A DNA stretch of 20,000 bases from an uncultured virus (IMG/VR IMGVR_UViG_3300045912_000307) (lineage: Duplodnaviria > Heunggongvirae > Uroviricota > Caudoviricetes), in IMG/VR virus record IMGVR_UViG_3300045912_000307; one strand, written 5' to 3'. Numbering within the stretch: position 1 is the first letter of the stretch; each line of letters begins with the position of its first letter. Position numbers and translations under genes: made by a program. The notes under the pieces were generated by a model. The model saw nothing but the letters and a program-made list of their open reading frames with translations, was not told the origin of the DNA and did not search any database. This document shows, in pieces, positions 1-18,511 of the stretch.

Positions 1-378
1 TATAGAGCTAAAAGTTTGTATAGAGGAGCTAAACAAAGAGCTAAACTAAAAAATATACCTTTTGATTTAACAGTAGTTTGGATTTATGATAAACTACTAG
101 CTGGTAAATGTGAAGTTACAGGTATTGAATTTGTTATAAAAAAATATTCTAGTAGATTAAAAAATGGTTATGAAAAAGTTCATCCATTTGCTCCTAGTTT
201 AGATCAAATAAAACCTAGTAAAGGTTATACTAAAGACAATGTTCAAGTTGTTTGCGATCAATTTAATAAATTCAAAAACGATCGGGATATTGTTCATACT
301 TATAAAATCGCTAAAGCTTATGTCGAGTCTATTAAATCCAAATATTCATTGCAAGTTAAGAAATTAGAATTTAACTAA
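1..378 (+). CDS. HNH-like (His-Me finger) phage endonuclease, probably homing type; 5'-truncated
   Basis: The frame is open from base 1 (YRAKSLYRGAKQRAK...), so the TTG at 16 is probably not the true start. The motif series AK.RAK.KNIPFDLT, CEVTG and PSLDQIKPSKGYTKDNVQVVC..FN.FK matches the phage 'SLDRID..GY...NV..VC...N..K' HNH-like family. TAA at 376-378. Confidence 0.75.
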   Translation, partial: YRAKSLYRGAKQRAKLKNIPFDLTVVWIYDKLLAGKCEVTGIEFVIKKYSSRLKNGYEKVHPFAPSLDQIKPSKGYTKDNVQVVCDQFNKFKNDRDIVHTYKIAKAYVESIKSKYSLQVKKLEFN

Positions 379-483: not shown

Positions 484-3400
484 ATGGCGATAATAAGTGG
501 GTTTAAATCAGCTACAGTAGATGATGTTAAGCCGTTTCAGCTACCTATAGATGAAATGGCAAAAGGTTTATTAGCAATTGATACTAGAGCTACTGCAGCA
601 AAAAACGCTTTAGCTACTGCTACAAGTTCTTTAAACATACCCCTTCGTGATAATGTTGAAGATTGGAATCTATTTGATACTATTGTAAAAGAATTTGATC
701 AAGAGAAGAATAAATTAATAGATTCAGTAGGCGGTGATTTTTCTAAGTTAAATATTGCAGATTTACAAAAATTAGCTTTAGATAAAGCACAAGATCATAG
801 ATTTAGACAATTAGTAAGTGCTAAGAAAAATGCTGATGAGTTTCAAGAGCAATTGAATAAAATGCAAGCTGCTGGAAAAGTACCTGTAACTTTTGGTATT
901 AATCCTCTTTATGATTCTCTTTATGATGAAAACGGTAGATTTAGATTTATGAATCAGTATGAAATAATGGAAGATCAAGATATAGAAGAACCTGCACAAA
1001 AAATGTTTAATAATTTAGGTCATAGTCTTGAAGAAGCTATTAAATGGCATCATAGTTCTGCTTTCTTAACTAAAGAGCAGCAAGAACAATTCTGGTATGA
1101 TTTCTGGCAAAAAGACTGGTCTAAAATTAAAGATAATTATCCTAACATTTCTGCTGTTATTAAAGATGGAGCTAAACAATTGATGAATGAACCAGCTGGT
1201 AGAGTTCATCAAAGAAAGCTTTATACTATGTATTCTAAGCAGTTTCCAACTAAGTCCAGACAGGAAGTTGATCAAATGATCGAAGATGACTTTGCTAAAA
1301 TCTTAATAAGAATTGGTAATTCTAGAAGAATAAGAGAATTAAATAAAACAAGTGATAGAAATTATAATCAAAAACCACAACAACCTTCTGTAGGTTCACC
1401 AGGTATGCCTTCTGGTAAAGGATCAAAAGTAGAAGCACCAGAACGTTTGAATATTAAAGCGCAAGAGTTTACATATACAGCTCCTGGATTTAATTACTTA
1501 AATCAAATAAGTCCTGGTGAAGCTTCAAGACATATTCTTAATACTGATATTAATCTTGCTAATTCAGGTATTAACTGGTCTCAATTCGATCCAGCTAACA
1601 TTGGTTCTATTGATAATATTAACTTGTTAGGTCAGTACTTATTAGCTGTACCTACTTTTGATAAAAAGATAGAAGTTAAAGGTCTTGGTGGATTTGATTT
1701 TGCAGGAGGTATTTATCAAGCTGCGCAAAATACAGTAATAATTGGTGGTAATGAAAAAGAAAAATGGAGAAATAATCCTACTGTGTTACCTATGCTTAAA
1801 GGTGATAATTTTGGATCAGCTGTAACATTACCTACTGGATATTTTATGGCAGATGGTAAAAGTTACAATGACATTCTTAATAACAATGATATTGCTTATA
1901 ATACAATTAGACAAGCTATTGAAAATAATCAAACTTATATTCTTGAACAAGATTACGCTAGAGCTTTAGCTAGAGAAGCTGGTGTTACTAGTGATAAAGA
2001 TAAAAACTACGTTGAAACAATGAAAACAGTTTCTGCTATTATTCAGCAACGTAGAAACTTTTCTCAAGGTAATTCAATGTATAATTTTAATATTAATCCT
2101 GATACAGGATTACCAAGTATTGGTGTAGATAAAACTCTTTACACAGTATTACAACTATTAGACGAAGATCGTAAAGAAGTAGATGCTGAAGGTAAACCTA
2201 CTCGTGCTGCACAATTAGCTGAACTACGTTATCAAAAACTAAGTGCTAAGATTAAAGCTGCTGAAGAATTTAGAAACAATTCAGGTAGAGCTTACTTTGA
2301 AAAAGCTGAAGCTACAATGAGAACTAAAGCTGAACAAGCTGCTACTTTTGATATGATTGATGATACTCATAGAGTAGCTGCTGGTATGAAAGAAAATGAA
2401 TACTTTATTATGGGTAATGAAGGAAAGAAAAGTAAACTAGAGGATAAAAAAGAAGCAGATATATTGTATAAAAAAGCTATAGTGACAACTGCTTACGCTA
2501 TGAGTAATTCTTCAATTAGCGGTGTTAGATTTAAACTTGACTATGCTGATTTGTCTGAAAGTACAGATAGTCTAAAAAATAAATTAGGAGATACTATGTT
2601 AAATATTACTGAAAAGATCTTAAGAAGAGAATTTCGTTTAGAAGATTATTTAACAAAAGAAGAAATAGAAGAAGGTACATCTGATCGTCTTTGGAGTTTT
2701 GTATTATCAAAATCATTATTATCTAAGTTTTTTAGTGAAATAGAAATAGAAGAGTTAGAAAAACAGGGAGTTATTAGGGGAGGTTTTTCAAGTATGGCAA
2801 ACCCTATTTTATCAGATATAGCTCACCTGTTATATTACTATTTTGAACCTGATAGTAGCGGTAAGACAATTACTTACACTAACCAAGAAGCTCCTAATGA
2901 ATATAATCAAAAACTTCAATCATCAATTATCGAAAGTTTAAAGCAAAACAAAAGCATATCACCAGCTGCTTTAAGATATTATGAATCACTAACTAAATCT
3001 AAATTAAATAGAGAAGCAGCTTTAACATACAGAATGTTTAATGAAACAGATCCTGATACTAAACACTATGCTGAAAATATTAAAAGTTTAGTTGTTAATA
3101 AAATAATGGCAGATGGTACAGCTGATACTCCTATCTATAGAGCTCATTATAATAGTAACAACACTAAAGTATTAAGAGAACAAGCTCCTATTCACTTGTT
3201 AAAAGATCAGCTTAGAGAGTTATACGATAAGATTAATGAGAAGAATACTACAGGTAAACTACCTTCTTATGAAGATTTTATTAAAGACTCTGTTACAGTA
3301 CTAGGAGTTACATGGGAACCAGGTCAAACAGGTTCTGATGACGGATGGGTAGTTGGTTTTCAAGTAACAATTGATGGTACTAAACACCATTGGCAAATAC

Positions 3401-3924
3401 CAGTATCTCAAACAGAATTACCAATGACTGTAAGAACTATGTTAGGTTTTGATAATCTTGAGTTAAAGTATTCTCCTATTGTCCAACAAAGTTTAAAACA
3501 AAATGGAGGATTATTTTATGATTTAGATTCTAGAGCTGAAGGAAGCAGTCCTATGAGAGTTTTTGTAGCTCATGCTCCTATGACTTTACGAGGTGTAAAT
3601 GGTGATATGGTTTCATTACAAGTAGGTCAAAGATATATTATTGGTTCAGGTAACCCTGCTATAGATCCGACAAACGCTTCAGAAGCTGGTATTCGTGCGT
3701 TTAAAAACGATCATGAAGCCTGGATGTATTATGATAGAAATAAAGCTTACGGTAAAAACTATCATGATTTAGTGTTTTTAAATAGCATATTAAAACAAAT
3801 GGCTTTAGCTAGATCGCCTCAAGAAAAACTAGCTATATCATATAGAATGACTGGTAAATATTTAAGTGAAGAAGCAATTAGAGCATTGATGCTTAAAAAA
3901 GCTGAAGAAAACCGGTCAAAGTAG
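484..3924 (+). CDS. Large putative virion cargo/ejection protein (1146 aa)
   Basis: Long ORF with an AT-rich leader lacking an SD. The N-terminal 'KPFQLPIDEM' plus helical segment resembles crAss-like internal virion proteins (recognised from memory, not searched). It has a P/G/S linker near aa 296-316 and no cysteine seen, and it precedes a muramidase and giant genes. Ends TCA AAG TAG. Confidence 0.6.
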   Translation: MAIISGFKSATVDDVKPFQLPIDEMAKGLLAIDTRATAAKNALATATSSLNIPLRDNVEDWNLFDTIVKEFDQEKNKLIDSVGGDFSKLNIADLQKLALDKAQDHRFRQLVSAKKNADEFQEQLNKMQAAGKVPVTFGINPLYDSLYDENGRFRFMNQYEIMEDQDIEEPAQKMFNNLGHSLEEAIKWHHSSAFLTKEQQEQFWYDFWQKDWSKIKDNYPNISAVIKDGAKQLMNEPAGRVHQRKLYTMYSKQFPTKSRQEVDQMIEDDFAKILIRIGNSRRIRELNKTSDRNYNQKPQQPSVGSPGMPSGKGSKVEAPERLNIKAQEFTYTAPGFNYLNQISPGEASRHILNTDINLANSGINWSQFDPANIGSIDNINLLGQYLLAVPTFDKKIEVKGLGGFDFAGGIYQAAQNTVIIGGNEKEKWRNNPTVLPMLKGDNFGSAVTLPTGYFMADGKSYNDILNNNDIAYNTIRQAIENNQTYILEQDYARALAREAGVTSDKDKNYVETMKTVSAIIQQRRNFSQGNSMYNFNINPDTGLPSIGVDKTLYTVLQLLDEDRKEVDAEGKPTRAAQLAELRYQKLSAKIKAAEEFRNNSGRAYFEKAEATMRTKAEQAATFDMIDDTHRVAAGMKENEYFIMGNEGKKSKLEDKKEADILYKKAIVTTAYAMSNSSISGVRFKLDYADLSESTDSLKNKLGDTMLNITEKILRREFRLEDYLTKEEIEEGTSDRLWSFVLSKSLLSKFFSEIEIEELEKQGVIRGGFSSMANPILSDIAHLLYYYFEPDSSGKTITYTNQEAPNEYNQKLQSSIIESLKQNKSISPAALRYYESLTKSKLNREAALTYRMFNETDPDTKHYAENIKSLVVNKIMADGTADTPIYRAHYNSNNTKVLREQAPIHLLKDQLRELYDKINEKNTTGKLPSYEDFIKDSVTVLGVTWEPGQTGSDDGWVVGFQVTIDGTKHHWQIPVSQTELPMTVRTMLGFDNLELKYSPIVQQSLKQNGGLFYDLDSRAEGSSPMRVFVAHAPMTLRGVNGDMVSLQVGQRYIIGSGNPAIDPTNASEAGIRAFKNDHEAWMYYDRNKAYGKNYHDLVFLNSILKQMALARSPQEKLAISYRMTGKYLSEEAIRALMLKKAEENRSK

Positions 3925-3963
3925 GTGAGCCGCAAGAAAAGATACCTACTGCGGCTGTAGGTG
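3916..3963 (+). other. Candidate -1 programmed ribosomal frameshift signal (A_AAG slip site plus downstream stem/pseudoknot)
   Basis: TCA_AAG_TAG at 3916-3924. Six nt after AAG, AGCCGCA (3928-3934) pairs with TGCGGCT (3950-3956). ACCTAC (3944-3949) is complementary to GTAGGT at both 3921-3926 and 3957-3962. The -1 frame is open from 3906 straight into the muramidase ORF. Confidence 0.65.
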
Positions 3964-3971
3964 AAGAAGAA

Positions 3972-4688
3972 ATGGTTAAAAATACAGCTAGAAAATATAA
4001 ACCTTTAATTAGAACATTTGTAAATGAAGAAGGATTACCTAAAGAAGCTGAAGATATAATGACTGTACTGATTAGTAACGAATCAGGCGGTCAATTAATA
4101 AACCCTAAAACAGGTGTTATTCATTTAAGATTTGAAGGGCATATTTTCCAACAAAAAATGGTAGAATTAAAAGCTAATGAATTAATGAGACAAGGTGTTG
4201 CTCCGGATAAAGCGATGAAAGCTGCTCAAGATTACGTATTAAGTTTAAAAAACAGTGATAAAAATGCTTTATTTTATGATAAAGTAGATCAACATCCAGG
4301 TACTTCAGGACAAGCAGAATTAAATAGATTAAAGAAAGCTTATGAGCTTAATCCTGAAGCTGCTGCTATGGCTACAGGATTAGGTTTAACTGCTATTCAA
4401 GGGGTTAATTATAAGTTATTAGGATTTAATACTGGTAAAGAATTATTAGATTATGTACTTTCTAATCCTAAAGATGAAGATTTTATTAGATGGCAAGCCA
4501 GAATAATAAAAAATAATATTGATTACTTTAAATCAAAATACAAAAGAAATCCAACTGAAGAAGAAATAGTAGCAATGTATCAAGCAGGACCTGGTAATCC
4601 TAATTTATATCAAGATAAAGGTAATAAAATTGCTCAAGACTATATTGAAAAATATAGAAGACGCAAAGCATATATAAGCGGTTATTAA
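3972..4688 (+). CDS. N-acetylmuramidase-like peptidoglycan hydrolase (DUF3380/PF11860-like, lysozyme fold); frame open from 3906
   Basis: Motifs ESGG (candidate catalytic Glu at 4080-4082), LRFEGHIF and AAAMATGLGLTAIQGVNYKLLGF parallel the DUF3380 consensus ES.G...ILFERHIF...SASWGLFQIMGFNY..LG. The C-terminal 'AMYQAGPG...DY' resembles lysozyme-fold YNxG motifs. Confidence 0.75.
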   Translation: MVKNTARKYKPLIRTFVNEEGLPKEAEDIMTVLISNESGGQLINPKTGVIHLRFEGHIFQQKMVELKANELMRQGVAPDKAMKAAQDYVLSLKNSDKNALFYDKVDQHPGTSGQAELNRLKKAYELNPEAAAMATGLGLTAIQGVNYKLLGFNTGKELLDYVLSNPKDEDFIRWQARIIKNNIDYFKSKYKRNPTEEEIVAMYQAGPGNPNLYQDKGNKIAQDYIEKYRRRKAYISGY

Positions 4689-4702: not shown

Positions 4703-7700
4703 ATGAATGAAGATATACTCAATAAGATAGCTGAAGACCAGAAAGAATATGATCAGTTTCTTAAGAGTCAACAAGAGAAATTACAAGGTTCTATTCCTCC
4801 TCCATCTTCTACAGGAGAAATAGGTAATGTAGGTAGTAATGCTCCTTTTATACCTAAAGTACCTAAAGAAGTAACGTATCAACAATCTGTTAATAATTAC
4901 TTCAATAGCACTTCTATTGAAGATCAAATGAAAGAACTTGAAGATGTTCTAGCTAAGAAAAAAGAGTTAGAACAATTACAAGAAATGTATAAAGAAGATA
5001 AATGGGGTGTTGATTGGAAAAAAAGATATGAAGATGAAGGATCTGGTCCTTCATCAGCTAGTACTATATTTGATTCTGATTATGCTGAATACGATAGATT
5101 ACGTGTTACTGATAGAAGAGATCCTGAATATTTACAAGAACAATTAGCAGCTAATCAAAGTACTAGTGAGCAATTAGGAAGAGGTCTTAATAAGTTGTTT
5201 TGGAATACATTGTATCAAACTGTAGGTGGTATAGGTGCAATGTTTGATTTTGAAGACCATTTTAATCAAGATGATGAAGTAGGTAACTGGTTAACTGATT
5301 GGGCAAATAAGCAACAACAAGCTGTTGATGATGCTAACAAAATATATAAATCAAACAATAGATCATGGTCTTCATTAGCATGGTGGATAGATAATGGTGT
5401 TAATCTAGCATCTAGTATGTTATCATTTGCAGCGCAAGGTGCTGCTTTAGGTTATGCTCTATCACCTCTTAAGTTTGTACAGTTTTTAAGTAAAGGTAAA
5501 AAGTTAGCTGAGACAGCTGCTGCAGCTGAAAAAAGTGGTAAGCTTTTAAAAGCTGCTCAAAAATTTGAAGATGGTGCTAAAACTTTTATTACATCTGCTA
5601 TGCTAAATCAAGCAGAATCTATTATGAGTGCTACTGATGTTTACAGTAGAACTTATAAAGAAGCTATTGATAGAGGTTATTCTGATGAATATGCTAGAAA
5701 AGTTGCTGCAGCATCTGCTACACAAACTATTGCTGTTAATAAAGCTAACATTATGCTTAATTTAACCTCAGCTAATATGTTTACTAGAGGTTTTAAATCA
5801 GTAGCAGATGCTTATAAACAAAGCTTATGGAAACAAAGTTTAAAAGAAGCTATACAAGAATCTGCTGAAGAGCTTATTAATATGAAAGCTGAAAAAGCAG
5901 GTGAAGAAATTGCAAAAACTTACATGGATAACTCTTTCTTTAGTGGTCCTGATAAAATTCAAATTGGTGATTTAAAAATAACTCCTGAAACAGCAAGATA
6001 TAATGCACAAGCTGAAGCTAATAAAACAGATGTAAGATATAAAGCACAAGACCTAGGAATATTTACTCCTATGGTTCAGTCTATGTATAATAGTAAAACA
6101 GGAAATTTTAATCCGTTTTATAATATAGAAGCTGGTGAAGCATTAGAAACAGTATTTTGGGGTGCTTTAGGTGGAGCAGGACAAACTGCTATTGTTAAAG
6201 GCGGATTAGATAAGCTTGGATCATCTGAAGGATTTCTTTCTAAAATACCAGGTGTAGGTGCTTTAAATGAAAAACTATTTGGTAGTGAAATACATAAAGT
6301 AGCTGAAGAAGATGTTTACGATCCTTACAGTGGTACTTTGTTATTTAGAAAAGGAGAACCTATGTATGAAACTCAAAATGCTACATACAAAGAAAATCAA
6401 GCTTATCAAGAAGGAGATATTATCACTGAAGATATAAAAGATAAAGATGGTAATGTAATTCTTAAGGTAGAAAAAGATGATCAAGGTAAGCCTATTCCTA
6501 CTTCTATAACAGAGGAACAAGCTGCTAATCTTGCTAAAGCTAATGTTTATAAACATAAAGCTGGTGATGTTATTACAAGAGAAGTTTACGATGAAAATGG
6601 TGTACTTAAAGAAGTTATTACAGCTAAAGAATTAAAGTTAGATGAGAAAGGTCAACCTATTCTTGTTAAAGAAGTAGGTAAAGACGGTAAACCACGTAAG
6701 TATAGTAAAAGTGAGATGGAAGAAATTAACTATCAAAGACAGCTAGCTAAAGAATCAGAAATGAAAAGTCAAGCTGTAGCTCAAGCAAAACTTATTGCTT
6801 CAGCAGAACTTAAAAGAGCTGTTGACGATGTTAATACACAACTTGAAGAATTAAGAAGTAGAAACTGGGAAAATAAAGAAGATCAAAAAGATTTCTTATT
6901 AACTAAGTTATCTAAAAATATAGCAGCTGTAGAATTAGCTACAGAAGGTAATACTAATATTACTACTGAAATGCTTGAAGCTAAAGAAAAAGAAATAAGA
7001 GCTAAGCTTGAAGATCCTAGTTTTGATTTAAATGAGTTAAATGCTATTCAAACTAAATACGCTGCTTTATCTCACTATAATACTACTCTTAATGCAATTG
7101 ATAATGGTCAAGAAGAAATGTTATTAAGAATATGGGATGATATTGGTAAAATGACTAAAGAACAAGCAGCTGAAAAAGGTTTACCTGATAATTATGCTGA
7201 AGTAGCAGAACAACAAAAAGCTGAAATAAAAAGAATATCTAACATTTACTACAGTAATAGAATGAAAAAAGGTTATGCTGTAGGTAGAGCTGCTACAATG
7301 AATAGATTAAGATATGAACAAAATGAAAAAATACTTAGTAAGATTAACGATGATATAGATAAAAGACATGATGAAGCTTTTCAAAGATACTTAAAGTACA
7401 ATAAAGTGCCTAAAGAATTAGAACTAGAGCACAGAGAGAAGTTTAATGAAATGATTCAAAAACGTAGAAAACTTGATGAAGAATTAGAAAATGATCCTGA
7501 ACTTAATAAAATAGCTAAAGAAATTGAAGATCTTAAAAAGAAAAGAAATGAATTAGAAGAAAAGATTAAACAGGAAGCAGAGAATAGAAAAAAGAAAGAA
7601 GATGTAGCACTTAAAGAAAAACAAATTCAAGAAGCTAAAGCTAAATTGCTAGATGATCTTAAAAAAGCTTTAGCTGCAGAATTAGCTAGACCACCCGAAG

Positions 7701-10700
7701 AACAAGATAAAGAAAAGATTAATAATTTAAAAAATGATATTAAAATTGCTGAAGAAGCAGGTCGTCCTGCTAGTGCAGCTAGAGCTGAAAAATTAAAAGA
7801 ATTAAAAGATAAATTGCAACAAGAAAAAGCTAAACCTGAAGAACAACAAGATAAAGATCTTATCAATGATTTAAATGAAAGTATTGATATACTAGAAGCT
7901 TTAGAAAAAGAAGAACAAATTGAAAAAAGAACTATTAAAACTATTAAAGAAAGATCTAAAAAAATTAAAGAAGAATTAGATGAGATACAAGAACAAATTA
8001 AAGTATTAGAAGCAGAAAGTGAAGCTACTAGATCTGAAGAAGATAATAATAAATTAAAAGAACTTAAGACTAAAGAAAAAGCTTTAAAAAGAACTAAAAG
8101 AATATTAGATAATTTATCTAAGATATATGTTGAAGCTAGTCAAGAAAACGTTGATATTAATAATCTAGCTAAAGAACTAGCTAAAGTTAACCAACAAATT
8201 CAAGCTAAAAATGCAGAAAAATTTAATAAAGAAACTAGTATTAAAAATGCAGCTGATAGACAGTTAAAAGCTTTAGGTTTACCTCCTCATATGCACAAAT
8301 TTGCTCAAGATGTAGATAAAGCTTTTTATGCTAGAAAGAAAATTATTAAAGAACAAGATTACTTAAATAAAGTATTTCAAAGATTAGATACTGATGGTAT
8401 GAAAGTAGAACAAGAAAGACAATATCGTCAGTATCAAAATAGAATGAGAAGTGTAGCTTATGTACAACAATTAAATACTTTAAGAAGATTTCAAGCAGCT
8501 GGTGGAGGTATTGCTTATTATCCTCCTATTACTTTTCAACAAGAAACAGGTAGAATGAATGAAGATGGTACTCCTGAAACTAAAACAGTTAAAGGTACTC
8601 TTCAAACTCCTATTATTATGAAAATTGTAACTAAAGATGGTAAGTTGTATATGCAACCTACTAATCTTAATACAATGACAATGACTACTCAACAAGCTGC
8701 TATATATGAAAAAGTAGTAATACCAGGTAGAGAACAAGAATTTTATGCTACACTAGAAGCTCTTAATGCTTTAAAGAAAGAGTTTAAAGATTATCAGAAA
8801 AGCATTGAAGAAAGTACTCAAGATGAAAAAGAACGTAAAAGAGTTTTCTTTTCTGATGAACTAGTTAAATCTTATCAAGAAAATATTAAAGAATTACAAG
8901 AAAGACTTAATTCTCTTAAGTTATTTAGAGTATCTACAGCAAAAGAAGTTGAAGGTAGTAATTTTGAAGGTATAGCTATTGTAACTCCTTCTAGTACTAG
9001 AGTATCTCAATTACTTGTTACTGATGGAATGACTTTTCGTAAGAAAGTTAAAAGTGAAGATGGTAAATACACTGAACAAGATGTACCTGTTGAAGGTAAT
9101 GGTATTAAAGCCGGTACTACAATTACTTATACTTATACTAATATTAATAATGAAACAGTAACTAAAGAGTATAAGTTAAGAAGAGGTAAAAGAGCTGGTG
9201 ATAAAGAGATCATGGTAGAAAGTGAAGAATCTAGTATACTAATACCTGTTAGTTATAATGTAGTAATGAGTTCTTCACCTGTTAATTCTAAAGAAAAGAA
9301 AAAATTACTCAGAGAACAAGAAGCAATAGAAGCTATGACTATGCGTCAAGCTAGAATATTGCAAACTCAATATGCTTTAAATCAAAGATTAATAGAGATT
9401 GATAAAGAGCAAAGAGATAAAATAGAAGAAGATCAAAGAATTAGTGAATCTATTGAAGCTCTTTTAAAGATTTATAATGATTATATAATTAACTATGACT
9501 TTACAGCTTCAGATGAAGAACTACAAAAATTAGATGAAGAACTAAAGAAAACTTATATAGCTATTAAACAAGCTTTTATAAAGTATGGTGATGCTACTTT
9601 AAAGTCTTCTTTTGATACTTATATTAAAGAGTTAGACGCTCTTACTGCTGATATTAAAGAAATGAATGCTTTAATTAGAGCAGGAGCATCTCACATAAGA
9701 ACTATAAATGGTACTATTAAAAGTATTGAAGATAGACAAGCTAAAATTAAAGAAGAAAAGATAAAGCTTGAAGAATTACAACTAGAAGCTGAAATTCAAT
9801 TAGAAGAGTACGAAAAGAATTTACAAAAGAATTCAAAACTAATAGAGCAATTAACTAAAGACAGAGCAAATTTAGAAGCAAGAATTGCAGAAATAGAGCA
9901 ATCAGCTAAAGGAGCTAAATCACAAAAAGCAAAAGCAACTATTAGTGCTTTTAAAAAGCAAATAGACGCTATTGATGAACAATTAAATGAACTATACACT
10001 AAAAATGTTATTGAAGGTTTTGAAGCATCTGAACAAGTAAAACAATATGAAAAAGCTGTTGTTGAATTAGAGATAGAGTATTCTAAACTAGAAAGTGAAA
10101 AAGAAAAAGCTAAAATTACTTTAGGTGAATTAAAAGAGTCTATTAAAAAGAATCAAAAGAAAAAAGCAGAAATTGCTAAAGAAAGAGCTGAAAAATCTAA
10201 AGAATTAGATGCTTTAAAAGAAATAGGTACTACTTCTAACTATTTAGCTGTGCAAGAAAGTTTTAATAAAAACTTTTTAGCTTATGAAAAACAAATTGAA
10301 AATGCTAACAACACTGTAAGAGAATTACAGTTAAGTATTACTAGAGCTGAGCAAATATTAACAGTAGTTGATTTAGATAGAGCTTATCAAAACTTTTATG
10401 TTAAAGGTATTGAAGCTATTAATGCTCGTGTTAAAAAAGCTATAGAAAACGGAGATACTACAGTTGATGGTATTGATATTTCTGAAATAAAAATGATCAA
10501 TGCCATGACAAAAAGTATGATAGAAAGACTTAACAAGAAAAAAGAAGAAATAATTAAAATGGAAGGATTAGCTGCTACTAAACAAAAAGAATTACATAGA
10601 ACTAATAAAAAAGATCCTAAATATCCTAAATTAAAACAAGAATTATCTGATCTAAGAGCTGAGATTAAAGCTGCTCGTGCTGAAGCAAAAAATATAAAAA

Positions 10701-13700
10701 ATTTAATAGAAGAGAATAGACAAGAAATAGATAAGAAAATAAAAGAAAAAATTACTCTTAATAAAGAAGATTTCTTTAAAGAAATTATGAAAACATCTGG
10801 AGTAACTCAAAACATGATTAATCTTTATAATGAAGGAAAATTAGATGAGTTAAAGAAAGCTATGTTTCCAAAAATAGTAGAGGAATTTGTAACTGAAGAT
10901 GGAGATGTTGAAGTAGTAGCTGAATCAGATGAAGAATATAATGAAAGATTAAGTACTATCAATATACATGAACATGAAAACTTTGGAAAACTAAGCGTAT
11001 TTGCTATGTTACAACAAGAAGATATCCCTGATACTGTAGTTACAGAAGGTATTAGTGATATGAAAGCTTTTGTCAATGATCTTGTTGATAAAGTTAAAAA
11101 CAGAATTAATCAAAAAATAGATCTTGAAAATAAACTTAAAGAAGAATTAGAAACTAAAAAAGAAGAATGGATAAAAGCTAATCCTGCTTTCTTATTTATT
11201 AAAGAAAAAGATCTTGAAAAGTTCATAATTACTGAAGAAACTAAAGAAAAACTTGGTACTCAAATAAGAAATGCTTATAATTTATTTTCACAAACTGTTG
11301 ATATTTTAGCTAAACGTAAGAAAGCGATACAAGAAAGAATAGAAGAACTTGATAGAGAAGTAAATGGACCTGGTGGTATTGTTGAACAATTTGCAAGACT
11401 TACTGCTTTACAAGAAAGTTTAGCAGAAGATGCTAAATTGTATAAAGAAGGTAAAGCAGAAGAAGAGTTTTATAAAAAATATACTATTAAGAATCAAGCT
11501 GAACTCTATGTTTCTTTAGCTAAAGATATTGAAGAGTATAATAAGAAACTAGAAATGTTAAAAGCTGACTTAGCTAATCATGAAAAAGAAATTCAAATTC
11601 TTGAAGCTTTAATGAGTTCATTAGATCCTCAAGAACAACAAGTTGAATACGATAATGCTAAAGCTAAAGTAGAAGCTCTTAATGAAGCTATTAATAAGAT
11701 CAATAGTGAGTATGAAAATATTAATAGTGATTTAGAAAAAGCTAAACTACAAAGATTTGATATTGCTTTACTGTATTCTTTTATACCTGAAGAAACAAGA
11801 ATGCTTCATGAAAAAAGAGAATTTGTTAACAATAACAGACAAGTTTTAGATGATCTAATTGCTCAAAGATCTGAATTATATCAAAAAAGAGCTGCTTTAG
11901 AAAACGTATATACTAAAGTTAGAAAAGGTAGAAAGACTTTAGTAGTAACTACTAAAGATCGCATAGCAAGAAATAAAGAGTTATTAAATCAGCTTATTGA
12001 AGAACTAAAGCAACAAGTATCATTAGCAAACGATGTTAGTCTTAGTGTTAATTTAAAAGAACAAGTTAGTAGTACTATTAATGACTTAGAAAAACAAATA
12101 GCTCTCAATGAAAAAGCTAGTTTAAAACTACTTAATGAAATTGATAAATTAAAATTAAGTGAATTAACAGAACAAAATATAGAGTTAATAGCTTCTAAAA
12201 AACAAGCTTTTAATGAGATTAATGCTAAACTAGAAACACTCAAAAGTGATTTAAATATCTATAAGAAAATGTTAGAATTACCAATGGGTGATATTAGCAT
12301 TAGTAACAGAGAAGCTATTATAAAAAAGATAACTGGGCAAAGTGCTGATGAAATTAAATTAAATGATAGCGAAACTACTGTAGCAAACTTTATTGAAACT
12401 TTAAAAGGTTTTATTGAATCTGATGAAAGAAACTTAGAATTATATAATCAGCAAATACAAGAGCTAGATGAGAAGTTAAAAGAAGTAGGTAAAAACTTAG
12501 TTTTAACTACTACTCGTAATGAAGTTGATCCTATTTCTAGTGCTAGAACTGCTGAAAGAATTATAAAGAGTAAATCAGCAATAGCTTTATATAAAAACAA
12601 GTTAGAAAAAGAACAAGCTAAACTAGAAGCATTAGAAAAAGAGTTAGATGCTAAGAAAAAAGAACAAGAAGCAAATAGAGAAGCTTTAAAAGACGCTAAT
12701 CAAAAACCTCAAAGTACTCCTTCTGAAAAGCTATTAAAAGATAAAGAAGTAAAAGAAGCTAATGATAAAGTAACATTAACTAAGAGAGAACTAGCAATAC
12801 TATATGGTAAAATAAAAACTACTAAAAGAAATATTGCTAAATACAGAAAAGATTTAATAAAAGCTACTGAAAACTATAATTCATTCTTTAATGTTACTTT
12901 ACAAGAAGAAGCTATACAAGCTCAAAATCTCTTGTTAATTCAAGATATAGCTAGAATTAGTGGAGGAGAATTGTACGATGGTTTTAACTACTCTGGTAGA
13001 AATGATGCTAATGAATTACAACCAGGTGGTAGCAGATCAAGTACTTTTGCTTTAGAAGGTTATCATGCTAAATCTAAAGACACTATTTTTGCTACTGCTA
13101 ATGCGTTTACTTTATGGGATGGTACAAGTAAAGTGTATAATGAAAAAGGTATTCCTATTGTTACTAAGGACATTCATCAAGTTAATTTCTTAAATGCTTT
13201 AGCTGATCTTGCTGATAACAATTTTAGTGAGTTTAATGAAAACCATGTGTTACAAGTAGTAAATCCTACATCACTTGGTAGTGAAGATCCTTCTATTAAC
13301 TACTTATCTAAACTTCCTTTCTATGATGAAGATGGTACTAGTACTATGACTATTGGTGAAATGAATAAAAAAGAAGCTAAAAATTTAGGTTTATATGTAG
13401 TTATTGCTAATAAAAAAGGTGAATGGTTATATAAAATGGAAGATGGATCTTATGAATATCATAGTATTCCACCAGATAAAGGTATGCCTATTTTTACAAC
13501 ATTTGCCAGTGAAAAACGAGTAGATTACTTAGATAATAATGCTTTTAAGAAAAAGATTGAAGAGTTAACGGGTTCTAAAACAATACAAGGAGTTCATATA
13601 ATTAACGGTGTTAAATATGATTTAAGTACTAAAGAAAAAGAATTAGAATTTTATAAAGACCCAAATCATCCGCTTAAAAAAGCTTTACGAGTTATTATTA

Positions 13701-16700
13701 AAAATGAACTTACAGCTTTCAGGAATAGAGTAATACATGAAAGCATGGTAGGTAATAAAGTATTTACTAAAATAGAACAAACAAGAGTAGGAGGTTTATT
13801 AAGAAGACAAAAACAAAATTTAGTAGTTGATACTAAAGATGGTGCTAAAACACTTAGAGTAGCTGATGTAAGACCTGTAAACATTCACAATATAAAAGAA
13901 GTAACTGTAGATAAACGATCTGATAAAAAAGGTATGGTTATCGTAACAGATGATAAAGGTACAGAAATAGATGTTTACGGTAGAAAAATGAATAGTAATG
14001 AAATAGTAGCAGCTATGTTTTTAATAGCTCATGCTACATCTCATGAAGAAGGATTAAAAAAATTAAACAATAGTATTATCATTAATGATGTAGAATATCC
14101 TGTACTAAATACTAAAAATAATCCAAATGGTTTACTTAATAGTTTAATGCACTGGACAGGTAAACCTGGAGAAGATATTCCTAAAACAGCTATATGGGTT
14201 GAAAAAGGTGCTATCAATTTTGCTTTTGGTAATAAGACTTCTTTTATAACTATTAACAATCTTAAAAAATTAGTTCAGTTTATAAAAGACAACATTCAAG
14301 ATATTACTAACGAAAATGGAGAAATTGATTTGAACTTGTTGAATGATAGAGTTAAAAATCTACAAGATAATAGAGGTATGCAACAATTCATTGCTTATAT
14401 GCAAAATAAGCGTGTAAATGTTGTAGCAGATAAATTAAATAAAAATGAGCCATATTTTAAACCTGTTATAGAAAATGGTAATCTATCTGTTAAAGAGTAT
14501 CCAAGTTATAAAGAATATCTTATCAATGAAGTTCTTGTTACAGATGTGATACCTGTTAGTGAATTACAAGATCAAGGATTAACAACTAATAAAGGTAACA
14601 GCTATATTACGTTTAAAGGTTTATCTACAAGTCCTGATATGAAAAATACAGTTAAGATAACTGTTGAAAAATATATAAATAAAGAAGGTATTCCATTCCA
14701 AAATGGAGAAACAGTCATAGTTAATAGAACTTTGAAAGATGGAGAAGTAGAACAATTCCAATCAATGTTAGTATTAAAAGACGGTCGTTGGTTTATTTAT
14801 CATAATAATGAGTATATTGATGTTGCTAAAGATCCAAATCTTTCTATAGAAAAATATACTGAAGAAGATGAAGAAGATGTAATTGCAAATCAAAATTCTG
14901 ATTCTCCGTCTCCTAAGTCTGAGTTAAAACCATTCGGTAAACTTAAATTTAATGAAAGAGCTGAAGCTATAGATAAAGCTACGCCTATAAAGTTTCAAAT
15001 AAATAATCAGAATACTATAGAAGTTGATGGAGCTAAAATAGTATTTAAAACTTCACAAGAAAATATCCAAAAGTTTATAGAAACAGGAGAAGGTTTATCT
15101 GATAAAGAAGTAGTAGCTGAAGTAAATCAAAAAACTACACATAATGGAAAAACTGTAAATACTAGTTATAAGTTAATTTATGATTCTGGTAGTAAATTAA
15201 TTATAATAGATCCTACTAGTGTTACAGTAGATGGTAAAGATTTTACTAAGTTCAGAGAAGAAAATGCTAACATTGTTAGTTTAGATGACTTAAATAAAAA
15301 CTTAACGTTTAGTGATGGGTCAGTGTATAACCTAAATGATAATGTTATTCCAGGTGTAGCTGGTTTTGATTTGTATTTAAAACAGCAAATTAAACAAGCT
15401 CTTGAAAACATTGCTAAAAAATATAATAAAACTTATGAAGAAATACTAAGCTTTGCTAAGTCTATTAATAATGTTGAAAAAGATAATTTAGATAATTTAA
15501 TTAAAAACACTAAACCTGAAGATTATCAATTAGTACAAGATATACTTAGAATACTAAGAGGTGATGATATTAACGTTGGTTTAAAACTATTATTAGCAGA
15601 TAGCAAAGGTAATTCTTTATACGGTTTTAATCCTAATACTTTAGATTCTACAGCTTTACCTAGTGTACTTAGACCTTCGATTCTTACTTTAGGATTTAGC
15701 GAAGATTCTAAAGCTCAATATACTGTTCCTACTAAAAATGAATTAGTAGCGCGTATATCTTACGCTTTAAGTAACAATTTAGGTTATTTTGAAGCTACTG
15801 AAACATCTATAGGTAATGCTACTGATATAACTAAGGAAAGAGGTTCTGTAATACTAGATGATGGTGCTTTAGAATATCAAGCTAGCGATTCTATGGTCTT
15901 TTATGATCCTAATCAAAACAGAACTAAAGTAGCTATTCCTCCTTCTGTGTATGTAATATATGCTACAGCAGTTAGTACTGGTGATCCTAAAATCAGATTA
16001 TCAAACACAATGGATAATCTAATTAGTGTTTTAAATAACGCTAGACATGGTATAGTTACTAAAGCAGATATTAATGAAAAGTTAAGAGAAGTATTCAAAA
16101 CTCAAGATGACAGTAAAACAAAAAATGATAAAGAAAAAGAGAATGCTCAAACTAAAGAATCTGAAGTTAAAGAAGTTAATATAGTTCCTTCTAAGTTTGA
16201 ATTTAGAGATTTAAATAGTGTTGATGCTCAAATCTTAGACAATCCTATTGATGCTCTATTAAATGAGCTAAATAATGATCAAGAAAGCTTTGTAGCTATT
16301 CGTAAACAAACTTCTAATAAAACTAGTAAAGATCCTGTTACAATAGAAGATTTAATAGAGTTAGATAATTTAATTAAAAATGACAAAATAACTGATCCTT
16401 TAGATAAAGCTAATGTATTAGCAATTTTAGATAAGTTTAAATCTCTAGATTTATCTAATATGACACTTAGTTCTGAATTTGATATTAGTGAAAATAGTGA
16501 AGATATAGAACTGTTAAGAAACTTATTTGAAGCTTATTATAGAGATAATGAGTATATAAATGATAAAGAAAATAAGATAGAAGAAATATTAGAAGCAATT
16601 AATGAACTAAGAGCAATATTAAGCAAAGAAAACAACTCTGTAGCTACTATAACAACAACTGATGATAATGTAAATGTAATTATTGACGGTAAAGTTTATG

Positions 16701-18511
16701 AAACTAAGTTTGTATTAAACAAAGATGTAAATCTTCTTAAAGCATCTGCTACAAATCCTAACAGTGAAACTAACAAGAAAATCATCGAGACTATTGAAAA
16801 CTGGACTGATGAAGTAGATCCTAATAAACTTAACATTTCAGTAAGTAGTGATGGATTTATTACTGCTACTCATCCTATAACTGTTACAAAAGCTAATAAA
16901 GCTGAACAAAAAGAAGGTATAATAAATTCTAATTTTGAATTAGTATTCATATTTGATTCTAAAGGTAACTTGATTAGTATAAAAGAAGAGTCTTTAAAAC
17001 TGAATTTAGCTGGTAAAAATAAACAGCTAGAGATAAAAGAAGAAACTGATACTCCTACATTAATTAAGTTTATAGAAAAAAATAAAAAGAATTATGAAAA
17101 ACTATTAGAAAAAGTAAATAAATCTAATTTAAATACTAATCCTCTTAATGCTCTTAAAGACAAAATTCAAACAGCTAAAGAAGTAAAAGTAGGATCTTTG
17201 TTTAAAGATTCAATTGAAGATTTTACTAAGACTTTAAAACCTTTTGATAAAGACCAAGCTTTAAATAATTTGTTAGTAACTGCTCCGCCTCAAACAAAAG
17301 TATTAATTTATAGTAAAACAGAAGGTAAAAAAACAGTAGAACAAAATAAGACTAATAGGAAAGATTCTAAAAAAGAAGAAACTACTGAAAATCAATCTAA
17401 GCTAGAATTAAAAGATTCTAAAGATCCTAATTTTACAGTTAAAGAATCAGCATTAAAAGATTCTCATAAAGAAGTATTAAAACTATTAGTAGGAGCTTTA
17501 TTTGCTAATGAAGGTAAAGTGAACTTGACTATAGTTAAAAATATAACTAATGAAAATATAGAAGGAACAGTTGATTTATCTAATCCTAATAACCCTGTTA
17601 TTAGACTTTATAAACCTGAAAACGTTAGTAGTAGTAATGATTTAGATGATAATGAATTATTTGTTGTTGCTCATGAGTTAATACATATTGCTGATTATAG
17701 AAAAAATAAAAGCTTTGATTTAGATCCAGAAAGATATGCTGATGTCATACTATTTAGAAATATAGCTTTAACTTCTTTTTTAACAAATACACCAGAAGGT
17801 AGTATAGATGATATGAGAGAAGTTGCTTATGCTTTACTGGGTAAAAGAAAACAAGATGGTAAAATTGCTAATGAGCATGATTTGATGTTATTAAAAGAAT
17901 TATTAGAGACTGTTAGCTTACAAGAGTTTTTAGAATACGTTGAAAAGAACTATAGTAATAACGAGTTTATTCCTAATATGATGAATAAAAAGTTCTTTAC
18001 TAAGTTCTTATTAGATACTAAACTAGACTCCAATTTCACTCAATCAGATTTAGGAAAATTATGGGCAGGTTATCCTTTTACGCAATCTCAGTTAGATTTA
18101 ATTAAAGCTGAAAATGCTGGTTCAATTAAATATGGTCAAGGATCTTTGTTTAATATAATATACAGTGCATTAATGGCTGTATTACAAAGATTAGTAGGTA
18201 GTGAACATCCTTTTAACAGTAACAGAAGTATATTACAAAAAGCTGTAGTATCATATACGTTTGCTACTATGAATGTTAAACCTGTTATAACTAAATCTAA
18301 GAAAGAAAAAGTAGATCCTGTAATTCAAGCTGAAAAAGAGTTTTTAAAACAACACTCTAATTATACTAATCAAAAAGTTGATAGCATTAAGACTATGATT
18401 CAAAATAAATCTAATGGTTTAAGTTCATTGCCTGATGAAGAGATTATTAATTTTATAAAACATCAAATCTCAACCAATGATAAGAGTATAATAACTTATG
18501 AGTGTATTTAA
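4703..18511 (+). CDS. Giant virion cargo/ejection polyprotein (4602 aa) with membrane-like N-terminal segments, long coiled coils and a C-terminal zincin-like domain
   Basis: Uninterrupted 13.8-kb ORF. Gly/Ala-rich hydrophobic stretches at about 5200-6270, E/K/L-rich heptad-like sequence at about 7300-12900, and HELIH at 17672-17686. Size and organisation resemble giant genes of the crAss-like RNAP/cargo cluster. Confidence 0.75.
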   Translation: MNEDILNKIAEDQKEYDQFLKSQQEKLQGSIPPPSSTGEIGNVGSNAPFIPKVPKEVTYQQSVNNYFNSTSIEDQMKELEDVLAKKKELEQLQEMYKEDKWGVDWKKRYEDEGSGPSSASTIFDSDYAEYDRLRVTDRRDPEYLQEQLAANQSTSEQLGRGLNKLFWNTLYQTVGGIGAMFDFEDHFNQDDEVGNWLTDWANKQQQAVDDANKIYKSNNRSWSSLAWWIDNGVNLASSMLSFAAQGAALGYALSPLKFVQFLSKGKKLAETAAAAEKSGKLLKAAQKFEDGAKTFITSAMLNQAESIMSATDVYSRTYKEAIDRGYSDEYARKVAAASATQTIAVNKANIMLNLTSANMFTRGFKSVADAYKQSLWKQSLKEAIQESAEELINMKAEKAGEEIAKTYMDNSFFSGPDKIQIGDLKITPETARYNAQAEANKTDVRYKAQDLGIFTPMVQSMYNSKTGNFNPFYNIEAGEALETVFWGALGGAGQTAIVKGGLDKLGSSEGFLSKIPGVGALNEKLFGSEIHKVAEEDVYDPYSGTLLFRKGEPMYETQNATYKENQAYQEGDIITEDIKDKDGNVILKVEKDDQGKPIPTSITEEQAANLAKANVYKHKAGDVITREVYDENGVLKEVITAKELKLDEKGQPILVKEVGKDGKPRKYSKSEMEEINYQRQLAKESEMKSQAVAQAKLIASAELKRAVDDVNTQLEELRSRNWENKEDQKDFLLTKLSKNIAAVELATEGNTNITTEMLEAKEKEIRAKLEDPSFDLNELNAIQTKYAALSHYNTTLNAIDNGQEEMLLRIWDDIGKMTKEQAAEKGLPDNYAEVAEQQKAEIKRISNIYYSNRMKKGYAVGRAATMNRLRYEQNEKILSKINDDIDKRHDEAFQRYLKYNKVPKELELEHREKFNEMIQKRRKLDEELENDPELNKIAKEIEDLKKKRNELEEKIKQEAENRKKKEDVALKEKQIQEAKAKLLDDLKKALAAELARPPEEQDKEKINNLKNDIKIAEEAGRPASAARAEKLKELKDKLQQEKAKPEEQQDKDLINDLNESIDILEALEKEEQIEKRTIKTIKERSKKIKEELDEIQEQIKVLEAESEATRSEEDNNKLKELKTKEKALKRTKRILDNLSKIYVEASQENVDINNLAKELAKVNQQIQAKNAEKFNKETSIKNAADRQLKALGLPPHMHKFAQDVDKAFYARKKIIKEQDYLNKVFQRLDTDGMKVEQERQYRQYQNRMRSVAYVQQLNTLRRFQAAGGGIAYYPPITFQQETGRMNEDGTPETKTVKGTLQTPIIMKIVTKDGKLYMQPTNLNTMTMTTQQAAIYEKVVIPGREQEFYATLEALNALKKEFKDYQKSIEESTQDEKERKRVFFSDELVKSYQENIKELQERLNSLKLFRVSTAKEVEGSNFEGIAIVTPSSTRVSQLLVTDGMTFRKKVKSEDGKYTEQDVPVEGNGIKAGTTITYTYTNINNETVTKEYKLRRGKRAGDKEIMVESEESSILIPVSYNVVMSSSPVNSKEKKKLLREQEAIEAMTMRQARILQTQYALNQRLIEIDKEQRDKIEEDQRISESIEALLKIYNDYIINYDFTASDEELQKLDEELKKTYIAIKQAFIKYGDATLKSSFDTYIKELDALTADIKEMNALIRAGASHIRTINGTIKSIEDRQAKIKEEKIKLEELQLEAEIQLEEYEKNLQKNSKLIEQLTKDRANLEARIAEIEQSAKGAKSQKAKATISAFKKQIDAIDEQLNELYTKNVIEGFEASEQVKQYEKAVVELEIEYSKLESEKEKAKITLGELKESIKKNQKKKAEIAKERAEKSKELDALKEIGTTSNYLAVQESFNKNFLAYEKQIENANNTVRELQLSITRAEQILTVVDLDRAYQNFYVKGIEAINARVKKAIENGDTTVDGIDISEIKMINAMTKSMIERLNKKKEEIIKMEGLAATKQKELHRTNKKDPKYPKLKQELSDLRAEIKAARAEAKNIKNLIEENRQEIDKKIKEKITLNKEDFFKEIMKTSGVTQNMINLYNEGKLDELKKAMFPKIVEEFVTEDGDVEVVAESDEEYNERLSTINIHEHENFGKLSVFAMLQQEDIPDTVVTEGISDMKAFVNDLVDKVKNRINQKIDLENKLKEELETKKEEWIKANPAFLFIKEKDLEKFIITEETKEKLGTQIRNAYNLFSQTVDILAKRKKAIQERIEELDREVNGPGGIVEQFARLTALQESLAEDAKLYKEGKAEEEFYKKYTIKNQAELYVSLAKDIEEYNKKLEMLKADLANHEKEIQILEALMSSLDPQEQQVEYDNAKAKVEALNEAINKINSEYENINSDLEKAKLQRFDIALLYSFIPEETRMLHEKREFVNNNRQVLDDLIAQRSELYQKRAALENVYTKVRKGRKTLVVTTKDRIARNKELLNQLIEELKQQVSLANDVSLSVNLKEQVSSTINDLEKQIALNEKASLKLLNEIDKLKLSELTEQNIELIASKKQAFNEINAKLETLKSDLNIYKKMLELPMGDISISNREAIIKKITGQSADEIKLNDSETTVANFIETLKGFIESDERNLELYNQQIQELDEKLKEVGKNLVLTTTRNEVDPISSARTAERIIKSKSAIALYKNKLEKEQAKLEALEKELDAKKKEQEANREALKDANQKPQSTPSEKLLKDKEVKEANDKVTLTKRELAILYGKIKTTKRNIAKYRKDLIKATENYNSFFNVTLQEEAIQAQNLLLIQDIARISGGELYDGFNYSGRNDANELQPGGSRSSTFALEGYHAKSKDTIFATANAFTLWDGTSKVYNEKGIPIVTKDIHQVNFLNALADLADNNFSEFNENHVLQVVNPTSLGSEDPSINYLSKLPFYDEDGTSTMTIGEMNKKEAKNLGLYVVIANKKGEWLYKMEDGSYEYHSIPPDKGMPIFTTFASEKRVDYLDNNAFKKKIEELTGSKTIQGVHIINGVKYDLSTKEKELEFYKDPNHPLKKALRVIIKNELTAFRNRVIHESMVGNKVFTKIEQTRVGGLLRRQKQNLVVDTKDGAKTLRVADVRPVNIHNIKEVTVDKRSDKKGMVIVTDDKGTEIDVYGRKMNSNEIVAAMFLIAHATSHEEGLKKLNNSIIINDVEYPVLNTKNNPNGLLNSLMHWTGKPGEDIPKTAIWVEKGAINFAFGNKTSFITINNLKKLVQFIKDNIQDITNENGEIDLNLLNDRVKNLQDNRGMQQFIAYMQNKRVNVVADKLNKNEPYFKPVIENGNLSVKEYPSYKEYLINEVLVTDVIPVSELQDQGLTTNKGNSYITFKGLSTSPDMKNTVKITVEKYINKEGIPFQNGETVIVNRTLKDGEVEQFQSMLVLKDGRWFIYHNNEYIDVAKDPNLSIEKYTEEDEEDVIANQNSDSPSPKSELKPFGKLKFNERAEAIDKATPIKFQINNQNTIEVDGAKIVFKTSQENIQKFIETGEGLSDKEVVAEVNQKTTHNGKTVNTSYKLIYDSGSKLIIIDPTSVTVDGKDFTKFREENANIVSLDDLNKNLTFSDGSVYNLNDNVIPGVAGFDLYLKQQIKQALENIAKKYNKTYEEILSFAKSINNVEKDNLDNLIKNTKPEDYQLVQDILRILRGDDINVGLKLLLADSKGNSLYGFNPNTLDSTALPSVLRPSILTLGFSEDSKAQYTVPTKNELVARISYALSNNLGYFEATETSIGNATDITKERGSVILDDGALEYQASDSMVFYDPNQNRTKVAIPPSVYVIYATAVSTGDPKIRLSNTMDNLISVLNNARHGIVTKADINEKLREVFKTQDDSKTKNDKEKENAQTKESEVKEVNIVPSKFEFRDLNSVDAQILDNPIDALLNELNNDQESFVAIRKQTSNKTSKDPVTIEDLIELDNLIKNDKITDPLDKANVLAILDKFKSLDLSNMTLSSEFDISENSEDIELLRNLFEAYYRDNEYINDKENKIEEILEAINELRAILSKENNSVATITTTDDNVNVIIDGKVYETKFVLNKDVNLLKASATNPNSETNKKIIETIENWTDEVDPNKLNISVSSDGFITATHPITVTKANKAEQKEGIINSNFELVFIFDSKGNLISIKEESLKLNLAGKNKQLEIKEETDTPTLIKFIEKNKKNYEKLLEKVNKSNLNTNPLNALKDKIQTAKEVKVGSLFKDSIEDFTKTLKPFDKDQALNNLLVTAPPQTKVLIYSKTEGKKTVEQNKTNRKDSKKEETTENQSKLELKDSKDPNFTVKESALKDSHKEVLKLLVGALFANEGKVNLTIVKNITNENIEGTVDLSNPNNPVIRLYKPENVSSSNDLDDNELFVVAHELIHIADYRKNKSFDLDPERYADVILFRNIALTSFLTNTPEGSIDDMREVAYALLGKRKQDGKIANEHDLMLLKELLETVSLQEFLEYVEKNYSNNEFIPNMMNKKFFTKFLLDTKLDSNFTQSDLGKLWAGYPFTQSQLDLIKAENAGSIKYGQGSLFNIIYSALMAVLQRLVGSEHPFNSNRSILQKAVVSYTFATMNVKPVITKSKKEKVDPVIQAEKEFLKQHSNYTNQKVDSIKTMIQNKSNGLSSLPDEEIINFIKHQISTNDKSIITYECI
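17657..17695 (+). other. HExxH zinc metallopeptidase (zincin) motif within the giant protein
   Basis: LFVVAHELIHIAD, preceded by the beta-like 'IEGTVDLS...VIRLY' and followed downstream by candidate third-ligand Glu residues (QEFLEY, NEFIPN). Confidence 0.65.

Follow-up and report, generated by a model that had tools for sequence, protein, structure and literature searches.

Two short RNA stems that cross each other directly behind the stop codon of a phage virion gene probably stimulate, from the 3' side, a programmed -1 frameshift that would join a muramidase domain to the C-terminus of a large cargo-type protein (ORF-A). The junction lies in a 20,000-nt stretch of DNA (the window) with which a phage contig of 72,801 nt ends. 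Overlapping reading frames and comparison with relatives make a frameshift fusion of ORF-A and the muramidase very probable, and the same kind of evidence suggests, with less assurance, that both stems are functional.

The cargo gene, the muramidase and the overlap between them

ORF-A has no match of note in Pfam, PHROG or the PDB. Its language-model feature score against the Atlas entry PF25712 (crassvirus cargo protein 2) is 0.90, a value likewise obtained for residues 1-600 of the protein P0002, and on this lead only ORF-A may resemble crassvirus cargo protein 2. We take the phage to be 'crAss-like' from the PF25712 lead, its giant late genes and the gene order of the group. Directly 5' of the cargo gene lies an HNH/endonuclease VII-like gene (window 16-378, PHROG), and genes that look similar by eye precede the cargo gene at two other loci (L001 1961-2578, L051 4286-4870).

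The -1 frame relative to ORF-A is open at 3906-4688 and contains the muramidase, which matches Pfam PF11860 at 48.3 bits (curated cut-off 22.3) and has phage endolysins 7rum and 7q4s as its best fold matches, at E 0.018 or weaker. The gene after the muramidase (window 4703-18511) encodes 4602 aa with no Pfam or PHROG match of note; near its C-terminus stands a HELIH motif, which we take to be the zincin motif present in those crassvirus cargo proteins that associate with the polymerase. The features of the junction are as follows.

484..3924, + strand: ORF-A, virion cargo-type protein of 1146 aa, ending at TAG; cargo protein 2 as a lead
3906..3921, + strand: overlap with frames 0 and -1 both open, the 16 nt ahead of the stop, within which a -1 shift must fall
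3909..3912, + strand: alternative tetrad A_AAC, a less likely candidate, 7 nt 5' of the upstream-copy stem
3915..3921, + strand: likely shift site G_TCA_AAG (NNA_AAG hexamer, A_AAG tetrad)
3920..3927, + strand: upstream copy, taking in the last base of the slip codon pair, the stop codon and the 6-nt spacer
3921..3971, + strand: linker of 17 aa in -1 frame codons, predicted to be disordered
3928..3934, + strand: 5' arm of stem 1, pairing with 3950-3956 (-11.0 kcal/mol)
3935..3942, + strand: loop 1, purine-rich, 8 nt (9 with the terminal U.G pair open); the sole variant seen is G3941C
3943..3949, + strand: 5' arm of stem 2 (TACCTAC), from folding and the P0005 comparison
3950..3956, + strand: 3' arm of stem 1, which doubles as the 7-nt loop of hairpin 2
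3957..3963, + strand: 3' arm of stem 2, equal to the downstream copy (hairpin -8.0 kcal/mol)
3972..4688, + strand: muramidase domain (PF11860), 238 aa, its ATG in a poor start context

The end of ORF-A reads G_TCA_AAG_TAG, with TCA_AAG at 3916-3921 in frame 0 and the stop at 3922-3924. Neither G_TCA_AAG nor A_GAA_AAC qualifies as an X_XXY_YYZ heptamer of the kind used by lambda G/GT and dnaX. Part of one published account describes NNA_AAG hexamers as known low-level -1 sites with a usual spacing of 5-9 nt, and A_AAG as a shift-prone tetrad in bacteria (PMC5009743). In the window stem 1 begins 6 nt behind AAG, and the locus has what marks bacterial cassettes of the IS3/IS1222 type: a -1 overlap, a tetrad and hexamer, and a structure (computed and covarying) 5-9 nt behind. 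Among tetrad sites in the -1 overlaps of 70 junctions, the strongest 3' fold is that of the window junction. Frameshifting efficiency may be low, and the hexamer site would be weaker if the presumed host carries a separate tRNA for AAG.

With a ribosome in the slip position, TCA would occupy the P site and AAG the A site, and the spacer (the GTAGGTG copy) would lie in the mRNA channel, unable to pair. Stem 1 would stand at the ribosome entrance, its 3' arm forming the loop of hairpin 2, and hairpin 2 would either lock stem 1 as an inverted pseudoknot or replace it after three pairs open. The tRNA-Lys would re-pair on AAA 3918-3920 and reading would continue in frame -1; the majority of ribosomes would terminate at TAG 3922, so that the cargo protein is predicted to be made without and with the enzyme, at 1146 and 1401 aa. 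Two other routes past the stop were rejected. Read-through of TAG, or TAG read as Gln, brings frame 0 to a further TAG at 3958-3960 and soon after to a TAA, and the only tRNAs on the phage contig are tRNA-Met and tRNA-Arg(TCT) (G000 C1 5567-5718); slippage on the A run near 3895-3900 enters a -1 frame that stops at 3903.

The preliminary description of this DNA had drawn attention to an 8-nt sequence, GTAGGTGA, that occurs twice (3921-3928 and 3957-3964), with the stop codon in its first copy and, in its second, an AGGTG (3959-3963) 8 nt ahead of ATG 3972; all of these positions were verified. It had also placed the complement ACCTACT (3944-3950) within the loop of the AGCCGCA/TGCGGCT stem (3928-3934/3950-3956), which holds for ACCTAC only, T3950 being common to ACCTACT and the 3' arm of that stem. 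Of the 8 repeated bases, 6-7 are capable of pairing, and the 8-mer has 5 occurrences on the + strand of the 72.8-kb contig.

The junction motifs exceed chance: 5000 dinucleotide shuffles of 3920-3964 gave an 8-nt repeat in 41 cases, a 7-bp stem in 35 and crossing stems of 7 and 6 bp in none. When the genome was cut into 45-nt tiles (n=1617), a repeat of at least 8 nt was found in 57 (with at least 4 G/C in 2) and crossing stems in 3. The segment 3920-3964 has a GC content of 51%, against 28% for the genome; the nested folding energy of the junction is ordinary (z -0.88). One of the stem 1 pairs comes from two rare codons, CCG (23 of 610 for Pro) and GCG (20 of 1070 for Ala).

An error of assembly does not account for the junction, because contigs from two other runs cross it without a gap: one from X3, by its listing another sample and study but possibly of the same campaign, spans 3865-4043 with 0 differences, and one from X4 spans 3842-3992 and differs at a single base of loop 1 (G3941C), at a depth of 2.5. 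A second strain, ~92% identical across the muramidase gene (window 4037-4619), is present in runs X3, X4, X6 and X8, its junction not clearly recovered.

Relatives of the cargo gene and of the muramidase

A profile search returned 55 matches, of which 24 shorter than 1000 aa were dropped; the 31 of at least 1000 aa and ORF-A make up 32 full-length proteins, and P0006 was excluded for being almost the same as P0002. A long tail, reaching 264-438 aa past the shared body, is present in 22 of the 32. Twenty of these tails match an M15-type profile built from the family, that of P0024 resembles an SLT domain weakly and that of P0045 is without assignment; in P0013 Pfam supports M15 above its cut-off. 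The short form, found in 10 of the 32 including ORF-A, stops 71-104 aa past the shared body, and the short and long states require at least 5 changes on the tree. GK or GN lies within the last three residues of 6 of the 10 short forms versus 1 of the 22 long ones (p 0.0014), in a test that was picked after looking at the sequences and in which three of the six short forms belong to one clade; a C-terminal Lys gives no separation (6/10 versus 12/22). Several short-form C-termini (P0015 KKKFN, P0018 EGK, P0019 EGK, P0022 SGKK, P0027 MGK, P0038 AGNF and P0040 TGK) fit heptamer slip sites. This muramidase was not found on any in-frame fused relative among the cargo-family proteins, and the SLT tail of P0024 was rejected as a counterpart, as it does not align with the muramidase.

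Four DNA loci of the family were recovered, two of which (L053, L054) were set aside because they do not reach the junction. The other two, L051 and L052, are short-form loci whose -1 frame encodes an M15 domain; they are close kin that count as one lineage, with no two-sided change between them. Residues 2-85 of the L051 -1 frame align with the tail that P0029 carries in frame (E 5e-10), and the first possible start in that frame is codon 90. In the L051 extension (8822-10351) an M15-type peptidase is followed by an SLT domain, which makes a tandem of wall enzymes. The slip sequences of these relatives are A_AAT_TTT in L052 and A_AGT_TTT in L051, and in both the slip codon TTT is followed, 6 nt further on, by a GC stem 1 of 5 bp, an 18-nt loop and a 6-bp stem 2, with a loop 2 of 3 nt, a loop 3 of 0 nt and no linker behind the 3' arm of stem 1. 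The window, L051 and L052 have the CTAC/GTAG core of stem 2 in common. A layout rule, which was written after seeing the three cases, has a single match each in the 72.8-kb + strand, L051 and L052; shuffles matched it in 0, 2 and 2 of 20000 cases, and control loci totalling 561 kb, most of them GC-richer and many of them near-copies, gave 57 matches.

Wider searches turned up no close relative at the DNA level. Scans of viral contigs with ORF-B, ORF-A, A1, P0018 and A6 found no relative, and a scan with A3 found one locus, L002, rejected as an unrelated endolysin. Scans of genome contigs and tblastn of named phages gave no matches, a metagenome scan yielded L001, where the gene is cut off after 124 codons, and no short C-terminal pieces were present among 411 candidates. 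A sequence search of the PDB with the M15 tail gave no useful match. A degenerate junction pattern picked out 48 loci, none of them related.

The only other match to the muramidase, P0005, is 64% identical, and its called sequence begins with 15 extra residues that correspond to the window's -1 frame ahead of ATG 3972 (BLOSUM score 25, reached in 333 of 100000 shuffles; the other frames score -9 and -5). In this comparison with one relative, made from protein only in an ungapped register that does not reach the upstream copy, the amino acids of P0005 force Watson-Crick pairing at 6 of the 15 pairs examined, allow it at 8 and make it impossible at 1 (3945-3961). Three pairs change on both sides: in stem 1 C3933-G3951 becomes G-C, and in stem 2 C3946-G3960 becomes T-A and A3948-T3958 becomes G-C. 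Controls reached that outcome in 3, 24 and 55 of 20000 cases, and the stem 2 changes alone in 96, 199 and 327 of 20000; slid registers contain 2-8 impossible pairs. Covariation across homologous junctions had been named beforehand as a check on the proposed pairing, and these three two-sided changes, deduced from the P0005 protein and spread over both stems, are of the kind that it called for. As judged from this protein, conservation extends to the stem formed with the downstream copy but not to the repeat, because P0005 cannot keep the literal GTAGGTGA (5 of 8 positions can be kept) or ACCTAC (3 of 6). We infer that the repeat is a product of pairing demands, neither a conserved motif nor a ribosome-binding site.

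Folding and geometry of the two stems

Folding covered nested structures. Among these, stem 1 dominates the ensemble (P 0.97-0.99 with the 3' end at 3975), stems 1 and 2 never appear together, and stem 2 has P ~0.01 with stem 1 whole. The upstream copy pairs with 3943-3950 over 7-8 bp (-7.0 to -7.7 kcal/mol) in competition with stem 2, and in a fold to 3990 at 37 C this upstream-copy stem wins (P 0.97), showing that the outcome depends on the 3' extent. Its duplex is matched by 8 of 5000 random 9-mers in the window, as against 996 of 5000 in L051 and 978 of 5000 in L052, where the spacer pairs with the 3' arm of stem 2 and extends stem 1 (P 0.93-1.0). That the spacer copy acts as a competitor is plausible from these models, at somewhat less than even chances. 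An extra 6-bp helix (3954-3959/3983-3988) could hold ATG 3972 in its loop, and is apparently not kept by the P0005 residues.

When the 5' end is stripped stepwise, stem 1 of the window persists until three of its pairs are open, and hairpin 2 then forms with P 1.0; the same stripping of L051 and L052 ends in a takeover by hairpin 2 at P 0.91-1.0. These results bear on the earlier proposal that a ribosome at the stop codon frees ACCTAC to pair with the downstream copy as a stimulator of frameshifting. The pairing and its stimulatory role gain support from the P0005 covariation and the L051/L052 layout, and release from the upstream copy is plausible by folding; the trigger, by contrast, would be a ribosome on the slip site and not one at the stop, because in L051 and L052 the stop lies within loop 1.

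With all pairs formed, loops 2 and 3 of the window are both 0 nt, and DotKnot, in the part of its description used here, sets the minima for the outer loops at 1 and 2 nt (PMC2853144); therefore this is no classical H-type knot. Two crossing stems are present at all three loci, and where H-type knots have a loop 3 of at least 2 nt across stem 1 and a loop 2 of 0-1 nt, loop 3 is 0 nt in all three. A frayed form of 6 and 6 bp with a 2-nt loop 3 can be drawn in the window only, with none in L051 or L052. The uncertainty over 0-nt loops that the preliminary description had voiced is thus settled against the classical knot, and on geometric grounds an inverted knot could still form. In such a knot stem 1 would stack on stem 2 via the continuous 3950-3963 strand, loop 2 would bridge the deep groove along a stem of 6-7 bp, like loop 1 of classical knots, and loop 1 would span both stems. 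By estimates that use general helix values, this span is 38-41 A in the window, for which ~6 nt would be needed and 8-9 are present, and 31 A in L051 and L052, where loop 1 has 18 nt. Kissing loops may be a precedent for a fully paired 7-nt loop, which passages of PMC7357161 did not confirm.

For the cases in which both stems matter, the models lean slightly toward sequential replacement after three pairs open, with an inverted pseudoknot only a little less probable. Stems that form together would extend the range of shapes known for frameshift pseudoknots, and stems that form one after the other would represent a natural two-barrier switch. A bolder and on balance doubtful proposal is that crassvirus cargo genes share a ribosome-armed inverted pseudoknot as a new class of -1 stimulator, in which a hairpin whose entire loop pairs with an upstream strand would be stacked without a third loop, and in which the spacer would hold the knot off until a ribosome at the slip site covers it. 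If true, an inverted knot could drive frameshifting on weak non-heptamer sites, and would be excluded by the loop-length rules of standard predictors.

Competing explanations and known recoding systems

The frameshift might be real and stimulated by the stem 1 hairpin alone, with stem 2 and the GTAGGT copies incidental. The dominance of stem 1 in nested folding and the impossible stem 2 pair in P0005 are consistent with this, as are the simple stem-loops that stimulate bacterial shifts such as that of dnaX (described in part of PMC6815119); it is nevertheless unlikely given the two two-sided stem 2 changes in P0005 and the recurrence of hairpin 2 at the same place, with the CTAC/GTAG core, in L051 and L052. 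Equally dependent on frameshifting, and very improbable, is a tandem arrangement in which the upstream-copy stem stimulates A_AAC at 3909-3912 and stem 1 stimulates A_AAG, the duplication itself being selected. The position of the upstream stem 7 nt after A_AAC, the strength of its duplex and its success in the fold to 3990 speak for such an arrangement; against it, tRNA-Asn re-pairs imperfectly on AAA and it is A_AAG that is listed as shift-prone in bacteria (PMC5009743, in part), the helper helix to 3983-3988 is by our reading not keepable in P0005, and L051 and L052 have a single site at 6 nt.

Two further explanations dispense with frameshifting. The muramidase could be made separately from ATG 3972 by re-initiation after TAG 3922, with hairpin 2 masking its Shine-Dalgarno (SD) sequence up to the point where a ribosome that terminates there refolds the RNA, a possibility close to the masking of independent initiation raised earlier. 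Indeed, the AGGTG 8 nt before the ATG forms the strongest anti-SD duplex of 70 starts (-8.9 kcal/mol), and the Met of 3972 is kept in P0005. We regard this as quite improbable, however, since with script-assigned ATG starts, a generic anti-SD and a presumed host, only 2 of 70 starts (3972 and that of a contig-edge ORF) form a duplex of -6 kcal/mol or better, the median being -0.7. The starts carry A at -3, -11 and -12 in 46, 49 and 47 of the 70, an A-rich pattern described for Bacteroidota, whose ribosomes do not read SD sequences (PMC7797042, in part), and the start score of ATG 3972 is below those of all 69 other starts and of 316 of 321 internal ATGs. In addition, freed ACCTAC would bury the SD sequence and not expose it, P0005 is unable to retain the motif (5 of 8 positions), the linker upstream of the ATG shows conservation as protein, and L051 has 89 conserved -1 codons that lack a start. 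Masking of an SD-led start is accordingly not supported, the phage genes being without SD use and the P0005 register unable to keep AGGTG. The last explanation, in which an originally uninterrupted gene was broken recently or wrongly assembled and the stems arose by chance, could appeal to the 22 of 32 relatives that are continuous and to X1 run contigs that break at 3951-3971; it is the least probable of all and is largely refuted by the gap-free X3 and X4 contigs and by L051/L052, and 10 of the 32 relatives stop at the same place and the stems covary beyond chance.

The programmed frameshift with two stems, which we prefer, has partial counterparts elsewhere. Like the IS3 -1 cassette, as far as it is covered in the source (PMC6815119), the junction has A_AAG, a downstream two-stem structure at 5-9 nt and overlapping frames with a predicted fusion, and NNA_AAG hexamer sites are also listed for Bacillus cdd and IS1222 (PMC5009743, in part). 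Unlike IS3 and IS1222, the junction concerns a phage virion gene with the stop directly behind the slip codon; unlike IS3, it has no linker between the 3' arms of stems 1 and 2, and its spacer can pair with a stem 2 arm. Classical H-type frameshift knots, in the excerpt consulted (PMC2853144), likewise consist of two crossing stems, but loop 1 here is 8-9 nt (18 in L051/L052), loop 2 is 0-3 nt and loop 3 is 0 nt. The HIV 'anchoring helix' is comparable in that a sequence near the slip site pairs downstream and steers two folds (PMC5009743, in part).

On the protein side, T7 gp16, SP6 gp36 and phiKMV gp36 carry a wall-cutting domain on a large internal virion protein as well, in one reading frame as listed in the relevant part of the source (PMC5380687), whereas recoding would be needed here. 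No frameshift on a crassvirus cargo gene was reported in the literature searched, which took in few subscription papers, and supplementary gene tables could annotate such fusions; in the passages covered, the crassvirus structural atlas and review name neither a wall-cutting activity nor a frameshift for cargo proteins. Look-ups aimed at the layout of the stimulator came back empty. A hydrolase on a share of the cargo molecules would explain how peptidoglycan is crossed, and is missed by gene callers. As in late-gene frameshift systems, a fixed ratio of short and C-terminally extended product would result, but here the added part would be a peptidoglycan hydrolase, and the cargo protein that bears it is likely ejected. 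At the window locus a hexamer site and a muramidase module occur together with a putative two-stem stimulator that recurs and lacks a third loop. This stimulator is a cassette of 60 nt, and its layout reappears in a distant lineage where the slip site and the enzyme are different ones, in a family whose members swap the enzyme (M15, M15 with SLT, or muramidase) and switch between fused and shifted forms.
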